Shown piece by piece: positions 55,415 to 64,000 of a DNA stretch of 64,000 nt. The notes under the pieces are model-generated. The model searched no databases. It was given only the letters and a program-made list of their open reading frames with translations, and had not been told where the DNA came from. A program made the position numbers and the translations under genes. Numbering within the stretch: the stretch's first letter is position 1; each line of letters begins with the position of its first letter. Where the stretch lies: positions 1,056,001-1,120,000 of the forward strand of contig CAVPCT010000003.1 of NCBI GenBank assembly GCA_963702475.1. The letters are read 5' to 3'. The stretch comes from an uncultured Thermoleophilia bacterium (GTDB taxonomy: Bacteria; Actinomycetota; Thermoleophilia; UBA2241).

Positions 55415-56296
55415 GTCTGCGGCGATCGCGGCGCTGGCCGCGCCGATGAGCTCAGCGGCGGCACGGCAGGCGGCGTCGGGGCTCGCCGCGGCCGACACTG
55501 CGTCGATGAGCGCACTCCCGATGATGACGCCGTCGGCGAGGTGGGCCACGCGCGCTGCCTGCTCCGGGGTGGAGATGCCGAAACCGACCACGAGCGGCAC
55601 GGCGGTACGCTCGCGCAGCCGTTCGAGCAGGCGCGGCAGGTCCGCTCCCACCTCGGCGCGCGCCCCGGTGACGCCGGTGACGGCCACGCAGTAGATGAAG
55701 CTCGTGGCTGAGGCCGCCACCATGTCGAGACGGGCCTCGGTGCTCGTGGGCGTGGCCATCGGGACAAGGGAGACGCCGTGCTGCGAGGCGAGGCCGGTGA
55801 GGCCGCCGGGGGTGCCGGGGAACCCGTCCTGCGCCGGCGGGAAGTCCGGCGTCGCGGCCTCGTCCAGCGGCAGGTCGGGGATGACGAGGGCCTCCACGCC
55901 GGAGGCGGCCGCACGCGTGAAGAACCGCTCGGGACCGTAGGCGAGCACGGAGTTGACGTACGTGAGGAGCACGAACGGCGCCGCGCCGCTGTGCCCCGCG
56001 ACGAGCTGTATCACGTCGTCGGGCGTGACCCCCGCGACGAGCGCCTGGTGCGTGGAGCGCTGCACGACAGGTCCGTCGGCGATGGGGTCGGAAAAGGGGA
56101 CGCCGAGCTCGACGATGTCGGCGCCGGCGGCGGTCACGGCGTCGATGAGCCGGCCGCTGGTCTCGAGGTCGGGATGCCCGCCGGTGAGGTACGGCATGAG
56201 GGCCGCGCGGCCGGCGCGCGGCGCCGCGAAGGCGCGCGCCAGGCGCGGCCCGAGGTTGGGCAGCGGCGCGGGTGACGGTGCGTCCGGGTCTCTCAT
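55412..56296 (-). CDS. trpA: Tryptophan synthase alpha
   Basis: [38 protein letters not shown]. Confidence 0.96.
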
Positions 56297-57573
56297 CGGG
56301 ATCCCTCCGCGCTCCGCGCGTCGCTCTCCAGCAACTGCGCGGCCTCGTGTACGTCCTTGTCGCCGCGCCCGGACAGGTTGACGATGACCAGGTCGCCCTC
56401 GGCGAAGCGCGTCTTTGCCGGGTCGAGCTCCTCGTTCTGACCGTCGATGGTGAAGCGCCCCGTGGCCGACGGCGACGGGGCGGTGGCCGGCGAGGCGCTG
56501 GGCCCGCGCAGCACGTACGCCACCGCGTGGGCGCTCTCCAACGCCGGGATGATGCCTTCGAGCTCCGCGAGCATGCGGAAGGCGGCCAGCGCCTCGGCGT
56601 CGGTGGCGGCCGCGTAGCGGGCCCGGCCGGAGTCCTTGAGCCACGAGTGCTCCGGCCCCACGCCCGGGTAGTCGAGGCCGGCCGACACGGAGTGGGCCTC
56701 GGCCACCTGGCCCCAGGCATCCTGCAGAAGGTAGCTGTACGAGCCGTGCAGCACGCCGGGCTTGCCGGCCGCGAGCGGCGCGCCGTGTCTGCCCTGCAGC
56801 CCCTCGCCCGCCGCCTCCACGCCCGTCAGCCTCACCGGCAGGTGGCGGAAGGCGTGGAAGATGCCCATGGCGTTGGAGCCGCCGCCCACACAGGCCACGA
56901 CCTCGTCGGGCAGGTGCCCGTAGCGCTCGCGCACCTGGGAGATGGCTTCGGCGCCGATGACCGCCTGGAAATCCCGCACCATGGCCGGGTACGGCGCCGG
57001 GCCGGCCACCGAGCCGATGCAGTAGAACGTGTGGGCGACGTTGGTCACCCAGTCGCGAAGGGCCTCGTTCATGGCGTCCTTCAGGGTGCGGGACCCGCTC
57101 TCCACCGGGATGACGGTGGCGCCGAGCAGGCGCATGCGGACCACGTTGAGCTCCTGCCTGCGCACGTCCTCGCTGCCCATGTACACGGCGCACTCGAGAC
57201 CCAGGAGCGCGCAGGCCGTGGCCGTGGCCACGCCGTGCTGACCGGCGCCCGTCTCCGCGATGACGCGCGTCTTGCCCATGCGCCTGGCGAGGAGCGCCTG
57301 GCCGAGGACGTTGTTGATCTTGTGCGCGCCGGTGTGGCAGAGGTCCTCGCGCTTGAGCAGGACGGTCGCGCCGCAGCGCTCACTCAGGCGCGGCGCGCGG
57401 TACAGCGGAGTGGGCCGGCCGGCGTAGTCGGTGAGCAGGCGCGTGAGCTCGGCCTGGAAAGCGTTCTCGCCGCGTGCCTCCTCATAGGCCGCCGCCAGCT
57501 CGTCGAGCGCCGGGATGAGCGTCTCGGGCACGTAGCGGCCCCCGTAGGGCCCGAATCTGGTCTCGACCGTCAT
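56293..57573 (-). CDS. trpB: Tryptophan synthase beta
   Basis: [53 protein letters not shown]. Confidence 0.98.
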
Positions 57574-58205
57574 GAAGCGGCACCTCCGGTGTGGTCGGCG
57601 GCCGCGACGGCCCCGAAGAACGAGCGCATCAGTCTACGCTCTTTGACGCCCGGCGTGCGCTCGATGCCACTGCTCACGTCCACGGCGAACGGGTGCAGCA
57701 GGTGGATGGCGCCGTCGACGTTGGACGGCTTGAGCCCGCCGGCGAGGACGAGGCGCTCGCGGGGCAGCTTCGCGGCCGCCAGCGCCTTCCAATCGAGCGT
57801 GTAGCCGGTGCCGCCGTACTGGTCGGGCCTGCGTGCGTCCAGCTGCAGCAGGTCCGCGCCGGCGGCACCGGCGGTGTCGGCGGCGGCGATGAGGCGCGGC
57901 CGCAGGCCGCGCCTCTCCAGCGCCGCCCGCACTTCCGGCACCGACGGGCCGTCCTCGCCGGCCGACAGCTGCACCGCGCCGAACCCGCCCTGCTCCACGG
58001 CCGCGGCGATCCACTCGGGGGTCTCCGTGGTGACCACGGCGACGGCCAGCGACTCCTCCGTCAGGGGGGTGAACTCGGCGGCGCGTGCCGCATCGATGTG
58101 GCGCGGGCCGCGAGAGATGACGAAGCCGCAGGCCCATGCCCCGCAGGAGACCGCGAGCCGCACGTCGGCCTCCCGCGTGAGGCCGCAGATCTTGATGTGC
58201 GTCAC
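57570..58205 (-). CDS. trpF: Phosphoribosylanthranilate isomerase
   Basis: [26 protein letters not shown]. Confidence 0.93.
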
Positions 58206-59023
58206 GCGGCGCCGTCCGGTCCCACGCAGCGGAGCGCCGCGACGGCGCCGGCCAGGCGGTCGTGCGGCGTGCTGACCAGCGCCTCGCCCACGAGGATCGC
58301 CTGGGCGCCGGCGTCGCGCACGCGTCTCGCCTCTCCCGGCGAGTGGATGCCGCTCTCGCTCACGAAGATGACGCAGCGCCCTATGATGGCGCCGAGCTCC
58401 TCGCTGACGGCCAGATCGACGTCCAGCGTGCGCAGGTCGCGGTTGTTCACGCCGATGATGGAGGCGCCCACTGCGTAGGCGCGCTCGAGGTCGTCGGCAG
58501 TGTGAACTTCGACGAGGGCGTCGAGGCCGCAGTCGTGACACTCGTGCAGCAGGGCGCGCAGAGAACCTGCCGGGAGGGCGGCCGCGATGAGCAGCACGGC
58601 CGCCGCACCTGCGTCCGCGGCCTCCCAGACCTGGTACGGGTCGACGATGAAGTCCTTGCGCAGCACGGGGATCCGGACCGCTGTCGCGACGGCGCGAAGG
58701 TCGTCCATGGAGCCGCCGAAGCGGAACGGCTCGGTGAGCACCGAGACGGCGTCGGCGCCGGCGGCCTCGTAGGCCATGGCCTGCTTGACGGCGTCGAGTT
58801 CCGGGGCGATGTCACCCTTGCTGGGCGAGCGGCGCTTGACCTCGGCGATGATCGCCAGCGGCTCGGGCCGCATGGCCGCGCGGGCGTCTTCGGAGGGCGC
58901 GGCGAGCGCGTTGCGGAAACGCCGCGGCTGGGGCGGGTCCGCGGGCGGCCACAGCGGGCGCTCTGTGCGCGCCGCCTCCGCCCGCTGCGCCGAGCTCTGG
59001 ATCATCTCGAAGAGGAAGTCCAT
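58202..59023 (-). CDS. trpC: Indole-3-glycerol phosphate synthase
   Basis: IIAEVKRRSPSKG, SVLTE, LRKDF, VEVH, GVNNRDL, SESGI. Confidence 0.96.
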   Translation of the reverse strand: MDFLFEMIQSSAQRAEAARTERPLWPPADPPQPRRFRNALAAPSEDARAAMRPEPLAIIAEVKRRSPSKGDIAPELDAVKQAMAYEAAGADAVSVLTEPFRFGGSMDDLRAVATAVRIPVLRKDFIVDPYQVWEAADAGAAAVLLIAAALPAGSLRALLHECHDCGLDALVEVHTADDLERAYAVGASIIGVNNRDLRTLDVDLAVSEELGAIIGRCVIFVSESGIHSPGEARRVRDAGAQAILVGEALVSTPHDRLAGAVAALRCVGPDGAA

Positions 59024-60072
59024 CAGGCGGCGCTCTCCGCGTGCAGGCGCTGCGTGGCGGCGACGAGGGCGTCGAGCTTGGCGCGCGCGGCGCCGGAGGC
59101 GACGGCCGCGCGCGCCTTCTCCACGCCCTCGGCGATGCTGCCCGCCGCCTCGGCGATGAACAGCGCCGCCCCGGCGTTGAGCAGCACGATGTCCAGCCGC
59201 GGGCCGGGCACGCCGTCCAGCACGTCACGCACGTGGCCGGCGTTCTCGGCGGCGTCGCCGCCGGCCAGGTCCTCCAAGCGCGCCCGGACGAAGCCGAACT
59301 CCTCGGGCGAGACCTCGTAGCGTACGTCGAAGCCCTGCCCGGCGAAGACCTCCACGACGGCCGTCGGGCAGGTGGTGGAGATCTCGTCGAGGCCGTCGGC
59401 GCTGTGCACGATGAGATTGCGCTCGTTGCCCATCATGCGCACGGCCTGGGCGATGCGCTCCACGTAGCGCGCGTCGGCCACGCCGATGAGCTGGTGGTGG
59501 GCGCCGGCCGGGTTCGTGAGCGGGCCGATGAGGTTGAAGGTGGTGGCCATGCCGAGCTCGCGGCGCACCGGGGCGACGTGCTTCATCGCGAGGTGGTGGC
59601 GCGGCGCGAACATGAAGCCGATGCCCGCCTCGCGGATGCAGGCGCTCACCTGCGCGGGGGCGATGTCGATGACCACGCCGAGCGCCTCCAGCACGTCGGC
59701 GCTGCCGCACTTGCTGGTGGCCGAGCGGTTGCCGTGCTTGGCCACCGTGACACCGGCGCCGGCGGCCACGAGGGCGGCTGCCGTGGAGATGTTGAAGGTG
59801 TGGGCGCCGTCGCCGCCGGTGCCGCAGGTGTCGAGGATGACGTCGGCGTCCACCTCGACCTTCTCGGCCAGTCCGGTCATGGCGCGCGCCATGCCGACGA
59901 TCTCCTCGGCGGTCTCGCCCTTGACGCGCAGGGCGCTGAGAAAGGCGGCCGTCTGGGCTTCGCCGGCACGGCCGCCCATGATCTCCAGCAGCACGTCGCG
60001 GGCCTGCTCCTCCGTGAGGTCGTTACCGAGGGAGAGCTCCTGCAGGGCTGCGCTGAGCACGTCATTCGGCAT
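59023..60072 (-). CDS. trpD: Anthranilate phosphoribosyltransferase
   Basis: DTCGTGGDG..TFNIST, KHGNRS, GSADVL, GLDE. Confidence 0.97.
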   Translation of the reverse strand: MPNDVLSAALQELSLGNDLTEEQARDVLLEIMGGRAGEAQTAAFLSALRVKGETAEEIVGMARAMTGLAEKVEVDADVILDTCGTGGDGAHTFNISTAAALVAAGAGVTVAKHGNRSATSKCGSADVLEALGVVIDIAPAQVSACIREAGIGFMFAPRHHLAMKHVAPVRRELGMATTFNLIGPLTNPAGAHHQLIGVADARYVERIAQAVRMMGNERNLIVHSADGLDEISTTCPTAVVEVFAGQGFDVRYEVSPEEFGFVRARLEDLAGGDAAENAGHVRDVLDGVPGPRLDIVLLNAGAALFIAEAAGSIAEGVEKARAAVASGAARAKLDALVAATQRLHAESAA

Positions 60073-60769
60073 CGCGGCCTCCTTCGTCCGGGTCGGCCGC
60101 GGCGGCCGGGCGCTGCGCCGCGGCGGGCCGCCGCTCCACCTCGTCGCGCCCCATCACGAGGAAGTTGCGCAACAGGTCGAGCCCGACGGCGGTGAGCACG
60201 CTCTCCGGGTGGAACTGCACGCCGTGCACCGGCAGCTCACGGTGGCGCACGCCCATCACGATGCCGTCCTGGTTCCAGGCGGTCAGCTCCAGGCACGACG
60301 GCAGGTGCTCGTCGACGACCAGGGAGTGGTACCGGGTAGCGGTGAACGGGTCGGGCAGCCCGGCGAACACGGCGCGGCCGTCGTGGCTCATCTCGTCGGC
60401 CTTGCCGTGCACCGGGTAGCCGGCGCGGCGCACGGTGCCGCCGTACACCTGGCCGATGGCCTGGTGCCCGAGGCACACGCCGAGCACCGGCAGGTTCTCG
60501 GCTCCGAACCGCCTGATGGCGTCCATGCTGATGCCGGCCTCGTTGGGCGTGCACGGGCCGGGTGAGACCACCAGGTGCGTGGGCTTCTCGGCGGCGATCT
60601 CATCGAGGGTCGTGCGGTCGTTGCGTTTGACGATCGTGTCGGCTCCGAGCTCGCCCAGCTCCTGCACGAGGTTGTAGGTGAACGAGTCATAGTTGTCGAT
60701 CATGAACACCCGCGGGGCCGGGACGACCGGCTCGCGCGGCGCGGGATCGAGGTCGGGCAGCGTGGTCAT
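60062..60769 (-). CDS. trpG: Anthranilate synthase component II
   Basis: IDNYDSFTYNL, SPGPC, GVCLGHQ, RYHSL, GVQFHPES. Confidence 0.96.
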   Translation of the reverse strand: MTTLPDLDPAPREPVVPAPRVFMIDNYDSFTYNLVQELGELGADTIVKRNDRTTLDEIAAEKPTHLVVSPGPCTPNEAGISMDAIRRFGAENLPVLGVCLGHQAIGQVYGGTVRRAGYPVHGKADEMSHDGRAVFAGLPDPFTATRYHSLVVDEHLPSCLELTAWNQDGIVMGVRHRELPVHGVQFHPESVLTAVGLDLLRNFLVMGRDEVERRPAAAQRPAAAADPDEGGRDAE

Positions 60770-62328
60770 TGCGCGAACTCCTCGTGGGCCAGCTCGACGG
60801 CACGAAGCAGTGCCGCCGCCTTGTTGCGGGTCTCCTCGTACTCCGTGGCCGGGTCGGAGTCGGCGACGATACCGGCTCCCGCCTGCAAGTATGCCGTACC
60901 GTCCTTCACGACGACCGTTCGGATGCAGATGCAGGTGTCCAGGTCGCCGCCGTAGCTCAGGTACCCGATGGCGCCGGCGTAGGGGCCGCGGCGCACCGTC
61001 TCGAGCTCGTCGAGGATCTGCATGGCGCGGACCTTGGGAGCGCCGCTCACGGTGCCGGCGGGGAAGGCCGCCTTGAGCGCGTCGATGGGCGCGCATTCCG
61101 GCGCCAGCGTGCCGCGCACGCTCGAGACCATGTGGATGACGTGCGAGTACAGTTCCATGCTCATGAACTCCTCGAGGCGCACGGTGCCCGGCACGCACAC
61201 GCGCCCGAGGTCGTTGCGCCCGAGGTCGACGAGCATGACGTGCTCGGCGCGCTCCTTCTCGTCGGCCAGCAGGTCGGCGGTGAGCGCCTTGTCCTCGGCC
61301 GCGGTCGCACCGCGACGCCGCGTGCCGGCTATGGGGCGCGTCTCCACCTCGCCGTTCTGGACGGTGATGAGGGGCTCGGGGCTGGAACCGCAGAGGGCGA
61401 AGTCGTCGAAGGCGATGTAGTACAGGTACGGGCTCGGGTTGACCGCGCGCAGGCCGCGGTAGACGGAGAAGGGCGCGACGTCGACCGGCGTGCTGAAGCG
61501 CTGGCTGAGCACGACCTGGAAGGCGTCGCCGGCGTGGATGTACTCACGGATGCGCTCCACGCCGGACTCGTACTGCTCGCGGGTCAGCGACGACGTCACC
61601 GGGCGGGCCTGCGGCGGCCCGGCGGCGTCCGGGGCGGACGGCGCGGCGCCGCCCTCGACGTCGTCGTCCTCGGCGAGGCCGTAGGCGCTCGCCGGGAGCG
61701 GCGCGAGCAGCTTCTCCTTGACGGCCGCGATGCGCGCGACGGCCCGTTCGTACGGGCCGTCCACGTCGCGGCCCTCCACGAACGCGTTGGCGACCACCGT
61801 GATGCGGTGCTTGAGGTGGTCGAACACGAGCACGGTGTCGGCCAGCAGGAAGGCCATCTGCGGCAGGCCGAGGTCGTCCGGCGGCGCGTCGGGCAGGTCC
61901 TCCAGCCGCCGCACCAGGTCGTAGCCGAAGTAGCCGACCAGGCCGCCGGCCAGCGGGGGCAGGGCGGCGTCGCCGAGCGCCCCGGGCGCCGGCGGCCGGT
62001 AGCTGCTGATGAGGTCGGCGGCGGCCGCGAACGGGTCGGCGTGCTCGACCTCGAGGCGGTCGCCGTTCTCCTGCACCGTCAGGCGCCCGTCCCGGTAGGT
62101 CACGAGGGCGCGGGCGCCGACCCCCAGAAACGAGTAGCGGCCCAGGTGCTGCCCCTGCTCGGCGCTCTCGAGCAGGAAGGCGCGCCGCGGCGCGCCGAGC
62201 TTGAGGAACGCGGAGACGGGGGTCTCGAGGTCGGAGACGAACGAGTGGGTGATGGGCAGGACGTTATGCGCCAGTGCGAGGCGGCGCGCCTCGACTAGCT
62301 GCGGTAGTACCCGTATGTCCTTTGCCAC
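60766..62328 (-). CDS. trpE: Anthranilate synthase component I (start uncertain, see findings)
   Basis: FLLES, GRYSF, NPSPY, PIAGT, EHVMLVDLGRND, FPAGTVSGAPK, QAGAGIVADS. Confidence 0.97.
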   Translation of the reverse strand: MAKDIRVLPQLVEARRLALAHNVLPITHSFVSDLETPVSAFLKLGAPRRAFLLESAEQGQHLGRYSFLGVGARALVTYRDGRLTVQENGDRLEVEHADPFAAAADLISSYRPPAPGALGDAALPPLAGGLVGYFGYDLVRRLEDLPDAPPDDLGLPQMAFLLADTVLVFDHLKHRITVVANAFVEGRDVDGPYERAVARIAAVKEKLLAPLPASAYGLAEDDDVEGGAAPSAPDAAGPPQARPVTSSLTREQYESGVERIREYIHAGDAFQVVLSQRFSTPVDVAPFSVYRGLRAVNPSPYLYYIAFDDFALCGSSPEPLITVQNGEVETRPIAGTRRRGATAAEDKALTADLLADEKERAEHVMLVDLGRNDLGRVCVPGTVRLEEFMSMELYSHVIHMVSSVRGTLAPECAPIDALKAAFPAGTVSGAPKVRAMQILDELETVRRGPYAGAIGYLSYGGDLDTCICIRTVVVKDGTAYLQAGAGIVADSDPATEYEETRNKAAALLRAVELAHEEFAQ

Positions 62329-62339
62329 GGGCCAACCAT
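62295..62339 (-). CDS. Candidate leader peptide MVGPWQRTYGYYRS overlapping the trpE start out of frame
   Basis: GGAGG 6 nt before ATG 62339; 1 Trp and 3 Tyr in 14 codons. Confidence 0.5.
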   Translation of the reverse strand: MVGPWQRTYGYYRS

Positions 62340-62404
62340 GTGACACCTCCGGGTGAGCACTGGGCCCATCATCACGTGCTGCCGTTTCGGCAGCTTGCCC
62401 GCGA

Positions 62405-62434
62405 ACCGTAGGACAGGGGGCGGGGGGCTGTCAA
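62405..62434 (-). promoter_or_regulatory. Putative trp operon promoter
   Basis: Minus strand TTGACA-18nt-TACGGT, just downstream of the vapC stop. Confidence 0.6.
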
Positions 62435-62440
62435 CCTTCC

Positions 62441-62848
62441 TCAGCCGTCGGCCGCGAGGCACCAATCGTCGAGCCGCAGGCCGCTGACGCGCGCGAAGTG
62501 GGCGCGGTTGTGGGTGACGAGTGTGAGGTTGTGCACCAGGGCGCATGCGGCGATTCCCAGGTCGAAGTCATCGAGACTCATGCCGTCGCTGTCGAGTTGG
62601 GCCTTCAGCGCGCCGAAGACCTCGGCCGTGTCTGGCTGCAGATCCCAGACCGTGACGGCCTTCTCGAGGGCACGCACCCTGCCCAGGTTGCCGGCCACCT
62701 GCTGCGATCTGAAGGCTCCGTTGTACAGCTCCATGAGGGTGACGACGCTCACGCCCAGCTGGTCGTTGGCGTGCAGACTCAGATTGCCGAGGACCTCCGG
62801 CTTGCCCTTCAGGGCGTAGATCATGGTGTCGGTGTCGAGCAGGAACAT
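62441..62848 (-). CDS. vapC: PIN-domain toxin of a type II TA system
   Basis: FLLDTD, MELY.GA, DFDLGIAA.AL..LVTHN..HF. Confidence 0.93.
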   Translation of the reverse strand: MFLLDTDTMIYALKGKPEVLGNLSLHANDQLGVSVVTLMELYNGAFRSQQVAGNLGRVRALEKAVTVWDLQPDTAEVFGALKAQLDSDGMSLDDFDLGIAACALVHNLTLVTHNRAHFARVSGLRLDDWCLAADG

Positions 62849-63139
62849 CTACAGCGCAGGCTTGGTGCCGGCATTGCGCCGCGTTGATCTGAGATCCGCG
62901 ATGATGTCGTCGGCGTCGCGCGGGTCGTCCCAGGACCCCGCCAGACCGAGGAGCCCTCGGGCTGAGGTGCCGGCGACGAGCTGATCCTCCCTGCGCGCCA
63001 GGTGCTCCTCGATGAGGTGCAACACCTCCTGACTGATGGAGCGATGGTCGGTCGCTGCCATCTGCCTGAGGCGCGCATAGAGCGCGTCGTCGATTCCCTT
63101 GATCTGCAGGATCGCCATGACATCCTCGTTCTTGCCCAT
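62849..63139 (-). CDS. Antitoxin with FitA-like ribbon-helix-helix N-terminus
   Basis: LQIKGIDDALYARL..A..HRSISQEV, LAGSW; abuts vapC; alternative start 63118. Confidence 0.85.
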   Translation of the reverse strand: MGKNEDVMAILQIKGIDDALYARLRQMAATDHRSISQEVLHLIEEHLARREDQLVAGTSARGLLGLAGSWDDPRDADDIIADLRSTRRNAGTKPAL

Positions 63140-63701: not shown

Positions 63702-64000
63702 TCAGGAGGCGCGCCGCTCGGCGATGGCGCGACGGATGAGCCTCACGCCCTCCGCCGCGTCGTTCGCCCACAGGTCGGCGCCGGTGTGGCGGCGCATCTG
63801 CTCGTCCACGATGCCGCCGCCGATGATCACCGGCACGTCGCGGCCGAGGTCGCGTGAGACGTCGCGCAGCACGTCGACGGTGTCATTCATGCCGGCGGTG
63901 GCGACGCTGAGCAGGCCGGAGAGTCCGACGATGTCCGGCCTAAGCCGGCGTACCTGCCGCGCCACCTCGTCCGGCTGCACGTCGACGCCCAGGTCGTGCA
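63702..64000 (-). CDS. Cobalamin (B12)-binding domain protein, corrinoid-protein-like (5' truncated by window edge)
   Basis: DLGVDV, DIVGLSGLL, VIIGGG, GAD.WANDA.EG. Confidence 0.88.
   Translation of the reverse strand, partial: HDLGVDVQPDEVARQVRRLRPDIVGLSGLLSVATAGMNDTVDVLRDVSRDLGRDVPVIIGGGIVDEQMRRHTGADLWANDAAEGVRLIRRAIAERRAS

Follow-up and report, generated by a model that had tools for sequence, protein, structure and literature searches.

How is the first gene of a tryptophan operon translated if the strong ribosome-binding signal in front of it serves a start codon in another reading frame? This question is raised by trpE in the trpE-G-D-C operon of an uncultured Thermoleophilia bacterium (assembly GCA_963702475.1, contig CAVPCT010000003.1, positions 1,056,001 to 1,120,000; this whole stretch of 64,000 nucleotides (nt) is called the window). 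Upstream of trpE, a Shine-Dalgarno sequence (SD) is followed by an ATG that opens a leader of 14 codons, and trpE is read in the -1 frame relative to this leader. The initial annotation had described an out-of-frame micro-open reading frame (micro-ORF) of the order SD-ATG-TGG before trpE, and all its coordinates were borne out on the minus strand. The out-of-frame SD-ATG is universal among the trpE-positive genomes of the order (49/49). It is proposed, with a probability of about 0.55, that leader and trpE constitute a tryptophan-sensing -1 ribosomal frameshift switch.

The out-of-frame leader of trpE

SD and ATG (62339-62337, minus strand) are separated by the 4-nt spacer TCAC (62343-62340). 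The leader reads ATG GTT GGC CCG TGG, continues with CAA AGG ACA TAC GGG and TAC TAC CGC AGC, and ends in TAG at 62297-62295 (MVGPWQRTYGYYRS). It overlaps trpE by 34 nt. The trpE frame passes through the same region as ..GTG TCA CAT GGT TGG CCC and then GTG GCA AAG GAC ATA... It contains two GTG codons, one at 62346 within the SD and one at 62328 that is composed of the G of CCG and the TG of TGG, and in the leader overlap it uses the A-ending codons GCA, ATA, GTA, CTA and CTA. The three TAC tyrosine codons emphasized at the outset are present here; among relatives only the first of these positions is conserved, and L178 has TAA there while the ATA of the trpE frame stays. This weakens the idea that leader tyrosines act as a second sensor. 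The 7-bp hairpin expected after the leader stop also exists (CGAGGCG-CGC-CGCCTCG, 62293-62277), but it begins 31 nt past UGG and is too far away for a classical frameshift stimulator.

trpG, trpD and trpC each have their own SD 5-9 nt before the start codon. trpE alone in trpE-G-D-C has no SD in register: none is found within 12 nt upstream of GTG 62328. Counted from GGAGG, the out-of-frame ATG 62339 is 6 nt away and the in-frame GTG 62328 is 17 nt away. A start at GTG 62346 inside the SD was rejected. This codon is not separated from the SD by any spacer. Among 46 unique sequences from relatives (see below for their collection), two (L064 and L185) have TGA after it, and L135 has GTA in its place.

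A mundane explanation of the offset would be one missing C, in which case the true gene would encode a continuous TrpE beginning with MVGPVAKDIR. Long-read metagenome-assembled genomes (MAGs) do carry indels, and the trpE frame breaks early in L049 (229 codons), L058 (166 codons) and L061 (411 codons). An early break is also seen in L021 (488 codons); all four are probably indel errors of those assemblies. At the leader, however, a short-read DNA contig from run X1 is identical to the window over 62054-62411 with 0 differences and 0 gaps. Contigs from three RNA libraries (X15, X16 and X17; two studies) cross the site ungapped with CCC and no extra C, where contigs give the majority sequence only and RNA libraries can contain DNA. 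Because of this possible DNA and the small shares, the depth of the RNA-library contigs was not used as expression evidence. Furthermore, the same offset occurs in all 49 trpE-positive genomes, which originate from many studies and assemblers, and the leader stop is under selection, as judged from the codon usage described below. An assembly or sequencing indel is therefore ruled out, and the missing C, which the initial annotation had kept as its alternative and which would have appeared as four C's in the DNA and RNA contigs, can be dismissed with near certainty.

Conservation of the leader and of its stop codon

The order consists here of one family with 89 genomes from 11 genera of Thermoleophilia. 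It was searched with the motif ATGNNTGGCCCGTGGCN7ATA, which was found in 50 of the 89 genomes and in 7 genera, once per genome except for G065 (twice, on two contigs). The reversed pattern, used as a control, yielded 0 matches in the 89 genomes, so that the arrangement cannot be put down to chance. TrpE orthologs, defined by E<=1e-30 with a single protein query, were detected in 49/89 genomes belonging to the same 7 of 11 genera, and 49/49 carry the motif at the 5' end of trpE. In the 50th motif genome, G014, trpE is cut by a contig end. Relatives with the ATG in frame, which had been named beforehand as counter-evidence, do not occur among the 49 trpE-positive genomes of the order, and neither does a leaderless trpE; in all 49, the ATG is out of frame and the Trp codon is retained. 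The other 39 genomes, some of them nearly complete, have neither the motif nor a TrpE match with these queries. Altogether, 40/89 genomes are without a TrpE match at this threshold (one protein query), including the 98-100% complete G061 and G049, which suggests that tryptophan synthesis was frequently lost in the family.

When TrpE loci were cut out by homology, ggaggtgtcacATGnnTGGCCCGTGGC was common to 17/17 loci of the same genus. It was also present in 23/23 further loci with at least 71% N-terminal identity and in none with at most 54%. Detailed counts were obtained from 46 unique sequences gathered by a pattern that requires GGAGG, ATG, T, TGGCCCGTGGC and ATA. Invariant in 46/46 are GGAGGT, ATG, the T ending codon 2, GGC CCG TGG C and ATA, where the invariance of the pattern-required bases rests on the 49/49 homology-defined genomes and the 17/17 and 23/23 loci. 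Codon 2 of the leader is variable (ATT, ACT, CTT, TTT, GTT, CCT or TCT). Its last base, the T at 62334, is invariant although the genome prefers C or G there; with the GG after it, this T forms another TGG, which is in the trpE frame and precedes the TGG of the leader by 7 nt.

Past the GTG, the constraint is that of TrpE. The Ala codon after GTG differs at its third base only (GCA 24, GCG 20, GCC 2), the Pro position in the trpE frame uses all four CCN codons, and changes in the 46 sequences are synonymous for TrpE and non-synonymous for the leader. This means that TrpE-frame translation covers this stretch and that the leader peptide is free past Trp5. The rare Ile codon ATA is present at the leader site in 46/46 sequences compared to 7 of 453 Ile codons (1.5%) in the rest of trpE.

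The leader has 14 codons in 38 of the 46 sequences, 10 in six, 8 in one and 29 in one. The TAG depends on a trpE Leu codon being CTA, which is the case in 39/46 sequences versus 19/1374 Leu codons (~1.4%) in the rest of trpE at the same loci. Of the seven sequences with CTG, six stop four codons earlier via the rare Val codon GTA and the seventh has the 29-codon leader. In one more sequence, the stop falls at codon 9. The early stops of the six may go back to no more than one or two events in evolution. Elsewhere in trpE, 1.6% of the codons of the leader frame are stops, and a stop is found in 15.6% of 10-codon stretches. Judged by these frequencies, the leader stop is under selection. In the stem of the hairpin behind it, the synonymous bases of GAG and CTC are unchanged in 46/46 sequences and those of CGC in 45/46; the RNA structure may thus be selected as well.

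Might the leader peptide or its ribosome itself be the effector? A TnaC-like arrest by free tryptophan at the leader stop, or another roadblock, would block ribosomes in the trpE frame at high tryptophan. The regulatory sign would be correct, Gly3-Pro4-Trp5 is invariant, and the conserved hairpin lies directly after the stop. Against this, the peptide is not conserved past Trp5, its length is 8, 10, 14 or 29 codons, L178 carries a stop at the Tyr position, and an unexplained initiation at GTG would still be required. Such an arrest is considered very unlikely.

In other Thermoleophilia families (L025, L026, L027, L054, L055, L057, L065 and L067), a Trp codon again coincides with the trpE start, though the arrangement is different. 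There, a hisE-like gene ending in ..R-W-K/R-stop (cgATGGaaaTAA) precedes trpE. About 10 nt before the projected TrpE start, the likely trpE ATG shares two bases with the Trp codon of this gene. A scan of genome contigs with the 26-nt search motif returned 71 loci, of which those outside Thermoleophilia and Actinomycetota were without a TrpE match. Ten of the 71 lie in Caldilineaceae MAGs (including L116, L122, L127, L136, L142, L153, L163, L175 and L181). The one that was looked at, L136, is located inside a large glycosyltransferase-like ORF (..HAWEEAYGWPVGH..) and was rejected as a chance coding match unrelated to trpE.

A candidate tryptophan-sensing -1 frameshift

Ribosomes would load at the strong SD and start at ATG 62339. 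Three steps on, peptidyl-tRNA-Pro would occupy CCG in the P site with UGG in the A site. When Trp-tRNA is ample, UGG would be read, the leader frame would be kept and translation would stop at TAG after 14 codons. In this case, neither trpE nor the translationally coupled trpG-D-C would be translated. Under a shortage of Trp-tRNA, the A site would be empty and tRNA-Pro could slip one base back, from CCG to CCC, pulled by the still-paired initiating SD 12-14 nt upstream. GUG would then enter the A site, and the product M-x-G-P-V-A-K-D-I-R... would be TrpE as a trans-frame fusion. A feedback loop would thus be closed: low Trp-tRNA would cause the slip, the slip would yield TrpE and, by coupling, the enzymes encoded downstream, and these in turn would supply tryptophan. 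We infer the slip, its tryptophan dependence, the stimulation by the SD and the polarity on the downstream genes from the sequence.

Several features fit this mechanism. C_CCG is the single place where the trpE frame can be entered with a re-paired tRNA. The genome has a single tRNA-Trp gene, and tRNA-Pro genes with the anticodons CGG, UGG and GGG are all present. TrpE contains no Trp among its 520 residues, and TrpD none among 349, compared with 1.4% genome-wide; the TrpE product can therefore be made without Trp-tRNA. The shift site (C 62331) is located 12 nt from GGAGGTG (which ends at 62344) or 14 nt from GGAGG. According to the relevant passages of a recoding review, an SD-antiSD duplex stimulates -1 shifts at 9-14 nt and survives 5-7 nt of movement (PMC5009743). 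As the distance at trpE falls within this range, it counts in favour of the slip. Finally, a single indel would suffice to fuse the two frames. The one-base offset is nevertheless kept family-wide, which suggests a regulatory use.

A more far-reaching version is put forward tentatively and with somewhat less than even confidence. It regards the element as a family-wide 'frameshift attenuator', in which anthranilate synthase would be made only as a trans-frame fusion when no Trp-tRNA is available for UGG. The initiating SD would be the -1 stimulator at codon 4, and a second UGG, which comes from the invariant T-GG before CCC and would lie in the E site of the shifted frame, could let the abundant uncharged tRNA-Trp lock the frame.

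A number of points weigh against a frameshift. A tandem slippery heptamer X_XXY_YYZ is absent: U_GGC_CCG is not tandem-slippery, and only the P-site C_CCG re-pairs. On CCC, tRNA-Pro(CGG) would have a C-C wobble mismatch. A conserved 3' stimulator 5-9 nt downstream was found neither by RNAalifold on the 46 sequences, which returned only the post-stop hairpin and a dubious long-range pairing of GGGCC, nor in a single-sequence fold of the leader region (z = -1.9). A CCCGU/ACGGG stem folds in this genome, and the perfectly pairing CGG version is present in only 6/46 relatives. The leader contains one Trp codon only, and the presence of TGG is not independent of a GTG start, because GTG followed by the G of a GCN Ala codon forces TGG. 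The model leaves the invariant GG of GGC, the preceding T and the ATA codon unexplained. In the recoding review, a slow A site is said to matter more for +1 than for -1 shifts (PMC5009743). A second operon of the same design was not found in the genome by crude scans, which do not establish its absence. When an SD, an ATG and a short ORF were required together with a long overlapping ORF shifted by -1 or +1, scanning gave 95 mostly spurious matches; 47 remained after a filter on GC content at third codon positions and 23 after requiring an X_XXN slip site. Of these 23, trpE is the only one in which the codon is cognate to the pathway of the gene.

The GTG on which TGG depends leads to the main rival explanation, in which TrpE starts at GTG 62328 without a frameshift and the overlapping leader delivers or gates ribosomes. 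They could reach GTG after termination at TAG by back-scanning 31 nt, or by melting of local structure. Re-initiation upstream of a stop occurs in bacteria, and the short stop-to-start distance is kept. Moreover, GTG is invariant in 46/46 sequences, the TrpE-frame constraint begins right after it with an Ala codon that varies at the third base only, and TGG would be a mere by-product of GTG-GCN. However, GTG has no SD at a usable distance (17 nt from GGAGG), and it is traversed by ribosomes coming from the ATG 11 nt before it. Stalling at UGG would hide GTG under the ribosome. Less TrpE would then be made during starvation, the opposite of what a biosynthetic operon needs. The invariance of C_CCG would be explained only by the weak GGGCC/GGCCC stem. 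The initial annotation had left a -1 slip at the hungry UGG and gating by the leader side by side; the slip appears to fit anatomy and regulatory logic better, while gating is regarded as unlikely, though still worth weighing.

The partner of this weak stem lies in the upstream region. GGGCC, GGGTC or GGGCT is present in nearly all relatives, and each can pair with the invariant GGCCC (62333-62329). L185 has GGCCT at this position, where only 4 pairs are possible, and the changes are one-sided only. Further upstream, a 5' untranslated region (UTR) hairpin is missing in one subclade (L058, L118, L135, L157, L166 and L186) and is therefore dispensable. These 5' UTR hairpins and a Trp codon in a short leader before trpE would be expected for classical leader-peptide attenuation, and a T-box or slippage of RNA polymerase adding a C was considered in addition. 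A cmscan of 62100-62600 with E up to 10 returned 3 chance matches, none at gathering score and none to Trp_leader (RF00513) or T-box (RF00230), and no terminator-like site is found on the minus strand in 62150-62500, in agreement with what was originally reported. The leader has a single Trp codon and overlaps trpE. Three C are far shorter than known slippage runs, for which a recoding review mentions, in the part concerned, 9 A or T (PMC5009743). No extra base is seen in the RNA-library contigs, though contigs hide minor variants. Attenuation, T-box and slippage taken together are highly improbable, and the tryptophan-sensing frameshift remains the preferred interpretation.

Operon context and comparison with known systems

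The coordinates of all features are compiled in Table 1. The pyridoxal phosphate (PLP) enzyme downstream of trpC is probably trpB, a name derived from its position in the operon. The TTGACA/TACGGT pair would be the promoter of the trp operon; a sigma-70 scan did not flag it because its second hexamer matches in only 3/6 positions. The gap of 100 nt between a vapBC-like pair and trpE holds the promoter-like boxes, the hairpin, GGGCC, the SD and the ATG. The pair itself, vapC (PIN domain) and a FitA-like antitoxin gene (window 62441-63139), is located on the same strand directly upstream of the trp promoter.

Table 1. Features of the trp operon and its leader region (window coordinates).
Feature	Position	Strand	Basis or remark
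TTGACA, -35-like box of the putative trp operon promoter	62429..62434	-	same place in relatives, TTGACA or CTTGACA
TACGGT, -10-like box (TANNNT), 18 nt past the -35 box	62405..62410	-	TACGGT, TACCGT or TACCCT in relatives
5' UTR hairpin GCTGCCG-AAA-CGGCAGC, 7 bp	62378..62394	-	predicted fold; arms co-vary in relatives
GGGCC, may pair with GGCCC at the slip site	62363..62367	-	alignment of relatives
Shine-Dalgarno sequence GGAGGTG	62344..62350	-	complementary over 7 bases to the 3' end of the 16S rRNA of this genome (..GGATCACCTCCTTTCT)
Leader micro-ORF, 14 codons + TAG	62295..62339	-	sequence reading
Proposed slip site C_CCG (tRNA-Pro CCG to CCC)	62328..62331	-	invariant in 49/49 trpE-positive genomes
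GTG, first trpE-frame codon after the proposed slip, or rival start	62326..62328	-	46/46 unique sequences
UGG, sole Trp codon of the leader, proposed hungry A-site codon	62325..62327	-	invariant
ATA, invariant rare Ile codon of the trpE frame	62314..62316	-	46/46 unique sequences
Hairpin directly 3' of the leader stop, in the EARRLA codons	62277..62293	-	predicted fold and conservation
trpE (anthranilate synthase component I), 520 residues	60766..62328	-	Pfam Chorismate_bind 2.5e-95, Anth_synt_I_N 3.7e-38
trpG	60062..60772	-	Pfam; ATG overlaps trpE stop (ATGA); own SD GAGGAG
trpD	59023..60072	-	Pfam; SD GAAGGAGG 5 nt before ATG; 11-nt overlap with trpG end
trpC	58202..59023	-	Pfam; start overlaps trpD stop (TGATG)
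PLP enzyme, probably trpB	56293..57633	-	Pfam PALP 3.6e-43

Some further observations concern the genome at large. At C4:258754 (+) of G000, a short ORF with SD and ATG lies before a trpS-like gene (..GIQPSGTMHLGNYLG..) and in a frame other than that of the gene. This ORF has no Trp codon at the possible slip site and is probably a mere upstream ORF or a mis-set start. A tRNA with the anticodon CUA, called Pyl by aragorn, was found at C3:641046-641118 of G000, and a match to the PylS C-terminal domain (314.6 bits, above the cut-off) at C3:657647-658372; a tRNA-Sec is also present. Matches to the MttB methyltransferase family number 75 in the genome, and 14 of these contain a single in-frame TAG, and a B12-binding domain protein is encoded at the right end of the window (63702-63998). 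By these features, the Thermoleophilia bacterium seems to use pyrrolysine and to have a very strongly expanded MttB family. In such a cell, the TAG stop of the leader might be leaky.

That the translation of a leader can control amino-acid operons is textbook knowledge. To our knowledge, every known case acts via RNA structure (terminator, SD sequestering) or a protein. trpL-type attenuators (Rfam RF00513) and B. subtilis rtpLP, a leader whose translation reports Trp-tRNA supply, share with the trpE leader a short ORF that informs the trp genes about this supply. In contrast to them, the trpE leader has no tandem Trp codons, no terminator/antiterminator and no Rfam match: a covariance match, at least two adjacent Trp codons wholly upstream and a terminator are all absent. 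In addition, it overlaps trpE, and its output would be the reading frame itself.

The +1 programmed frameshift of prfB (release factor 2) resembles the proposed mechanism in its short first ORF, in the re-pairing of only the P-site tRNA, in the upstream SD-antiSD duplex as stimulator and in a product that restores the scarce factor. It differs since trpE has a sense codon (UGG) in the A site, the scarce factor would be an aminoacyl-tRNA and the direction -1. Furthermore, the SD of trpE is the initiating one, 12-14 nt and not 3 nt away, and the shift would occur at codon 4-5. The trpE leader has neither the in-frame stop at which prfB shifts by +1 nor its closely placed SD. Closer to it is the hungry-codon frameshifting of starved E. 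coli, in which, as summarized in parts of the recoding review, the A site is empty at a limiting codon and the peptidyl-tRNA slips to an overlapping cognate codon (Gallant et al., in PMC5009743). At trpE, re-pairing of the P-site tRNA in the new frame is possible (CCG to CCC in 49/49 genomes; tRNA-Pro CGG, UGG and GGG). In E. coli, such slippage is known as an error process and from constructs, whereas the trpE leader would be a conserved switch that is used.

Two other systems are described in sections of the same review (PMC5009743). In ermCL, a regulatory frameshift in a leader ORF also switches on the downstream gene; it is induced by ketolides, and the shifted ribosome only opens an RNA structure so that ermC initiates, while at trpE the shifted ribosome would make the enzyme itself. 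dnaX shares the -1 direction and a 5' SD stimulator at 9-14 nt, the range in which the SD of trpE lies (12-14 nt), but depends on the tandem site A_AAA_AAG and a 3' stem-loop, neither of which is found at the trpE leader, and yields a fixed 1:1 ratio. Frameshifting in pheL, treated in PMC3082878, was viewed as a by-product in the pertinent passage of PMC5009743. Further reports deal with tRNA-Pro UGG (PMC4519876), frameshifting at Trp codons in cancer cells (PMC13751296) and start-codon-associated frameshifting under nutrient stress (bioRxiv 10.1101/2023.02.15.528768).

Natural starvation-specific trans-frame proteins were not known according to the relevant passage of the 2016 recoding review (PMC5009743), and a published precedent for a starvation-driven frameshift switch on trpE or a biosynthetic operon was not found in our searches of the literature. 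The out-of-frame leader on trpE is conserved and family-wide. If the proposed mechanism is true, switching would be done by the reading frame, with the enzyme as the product of the shift, and this would be the first natural hungry-codon frameshifting that controls an amino-acid pathway in bacteria. With a length of only about 60 nt, the element could be used as a small sensor for the supply of aminoacyl-tRNA.

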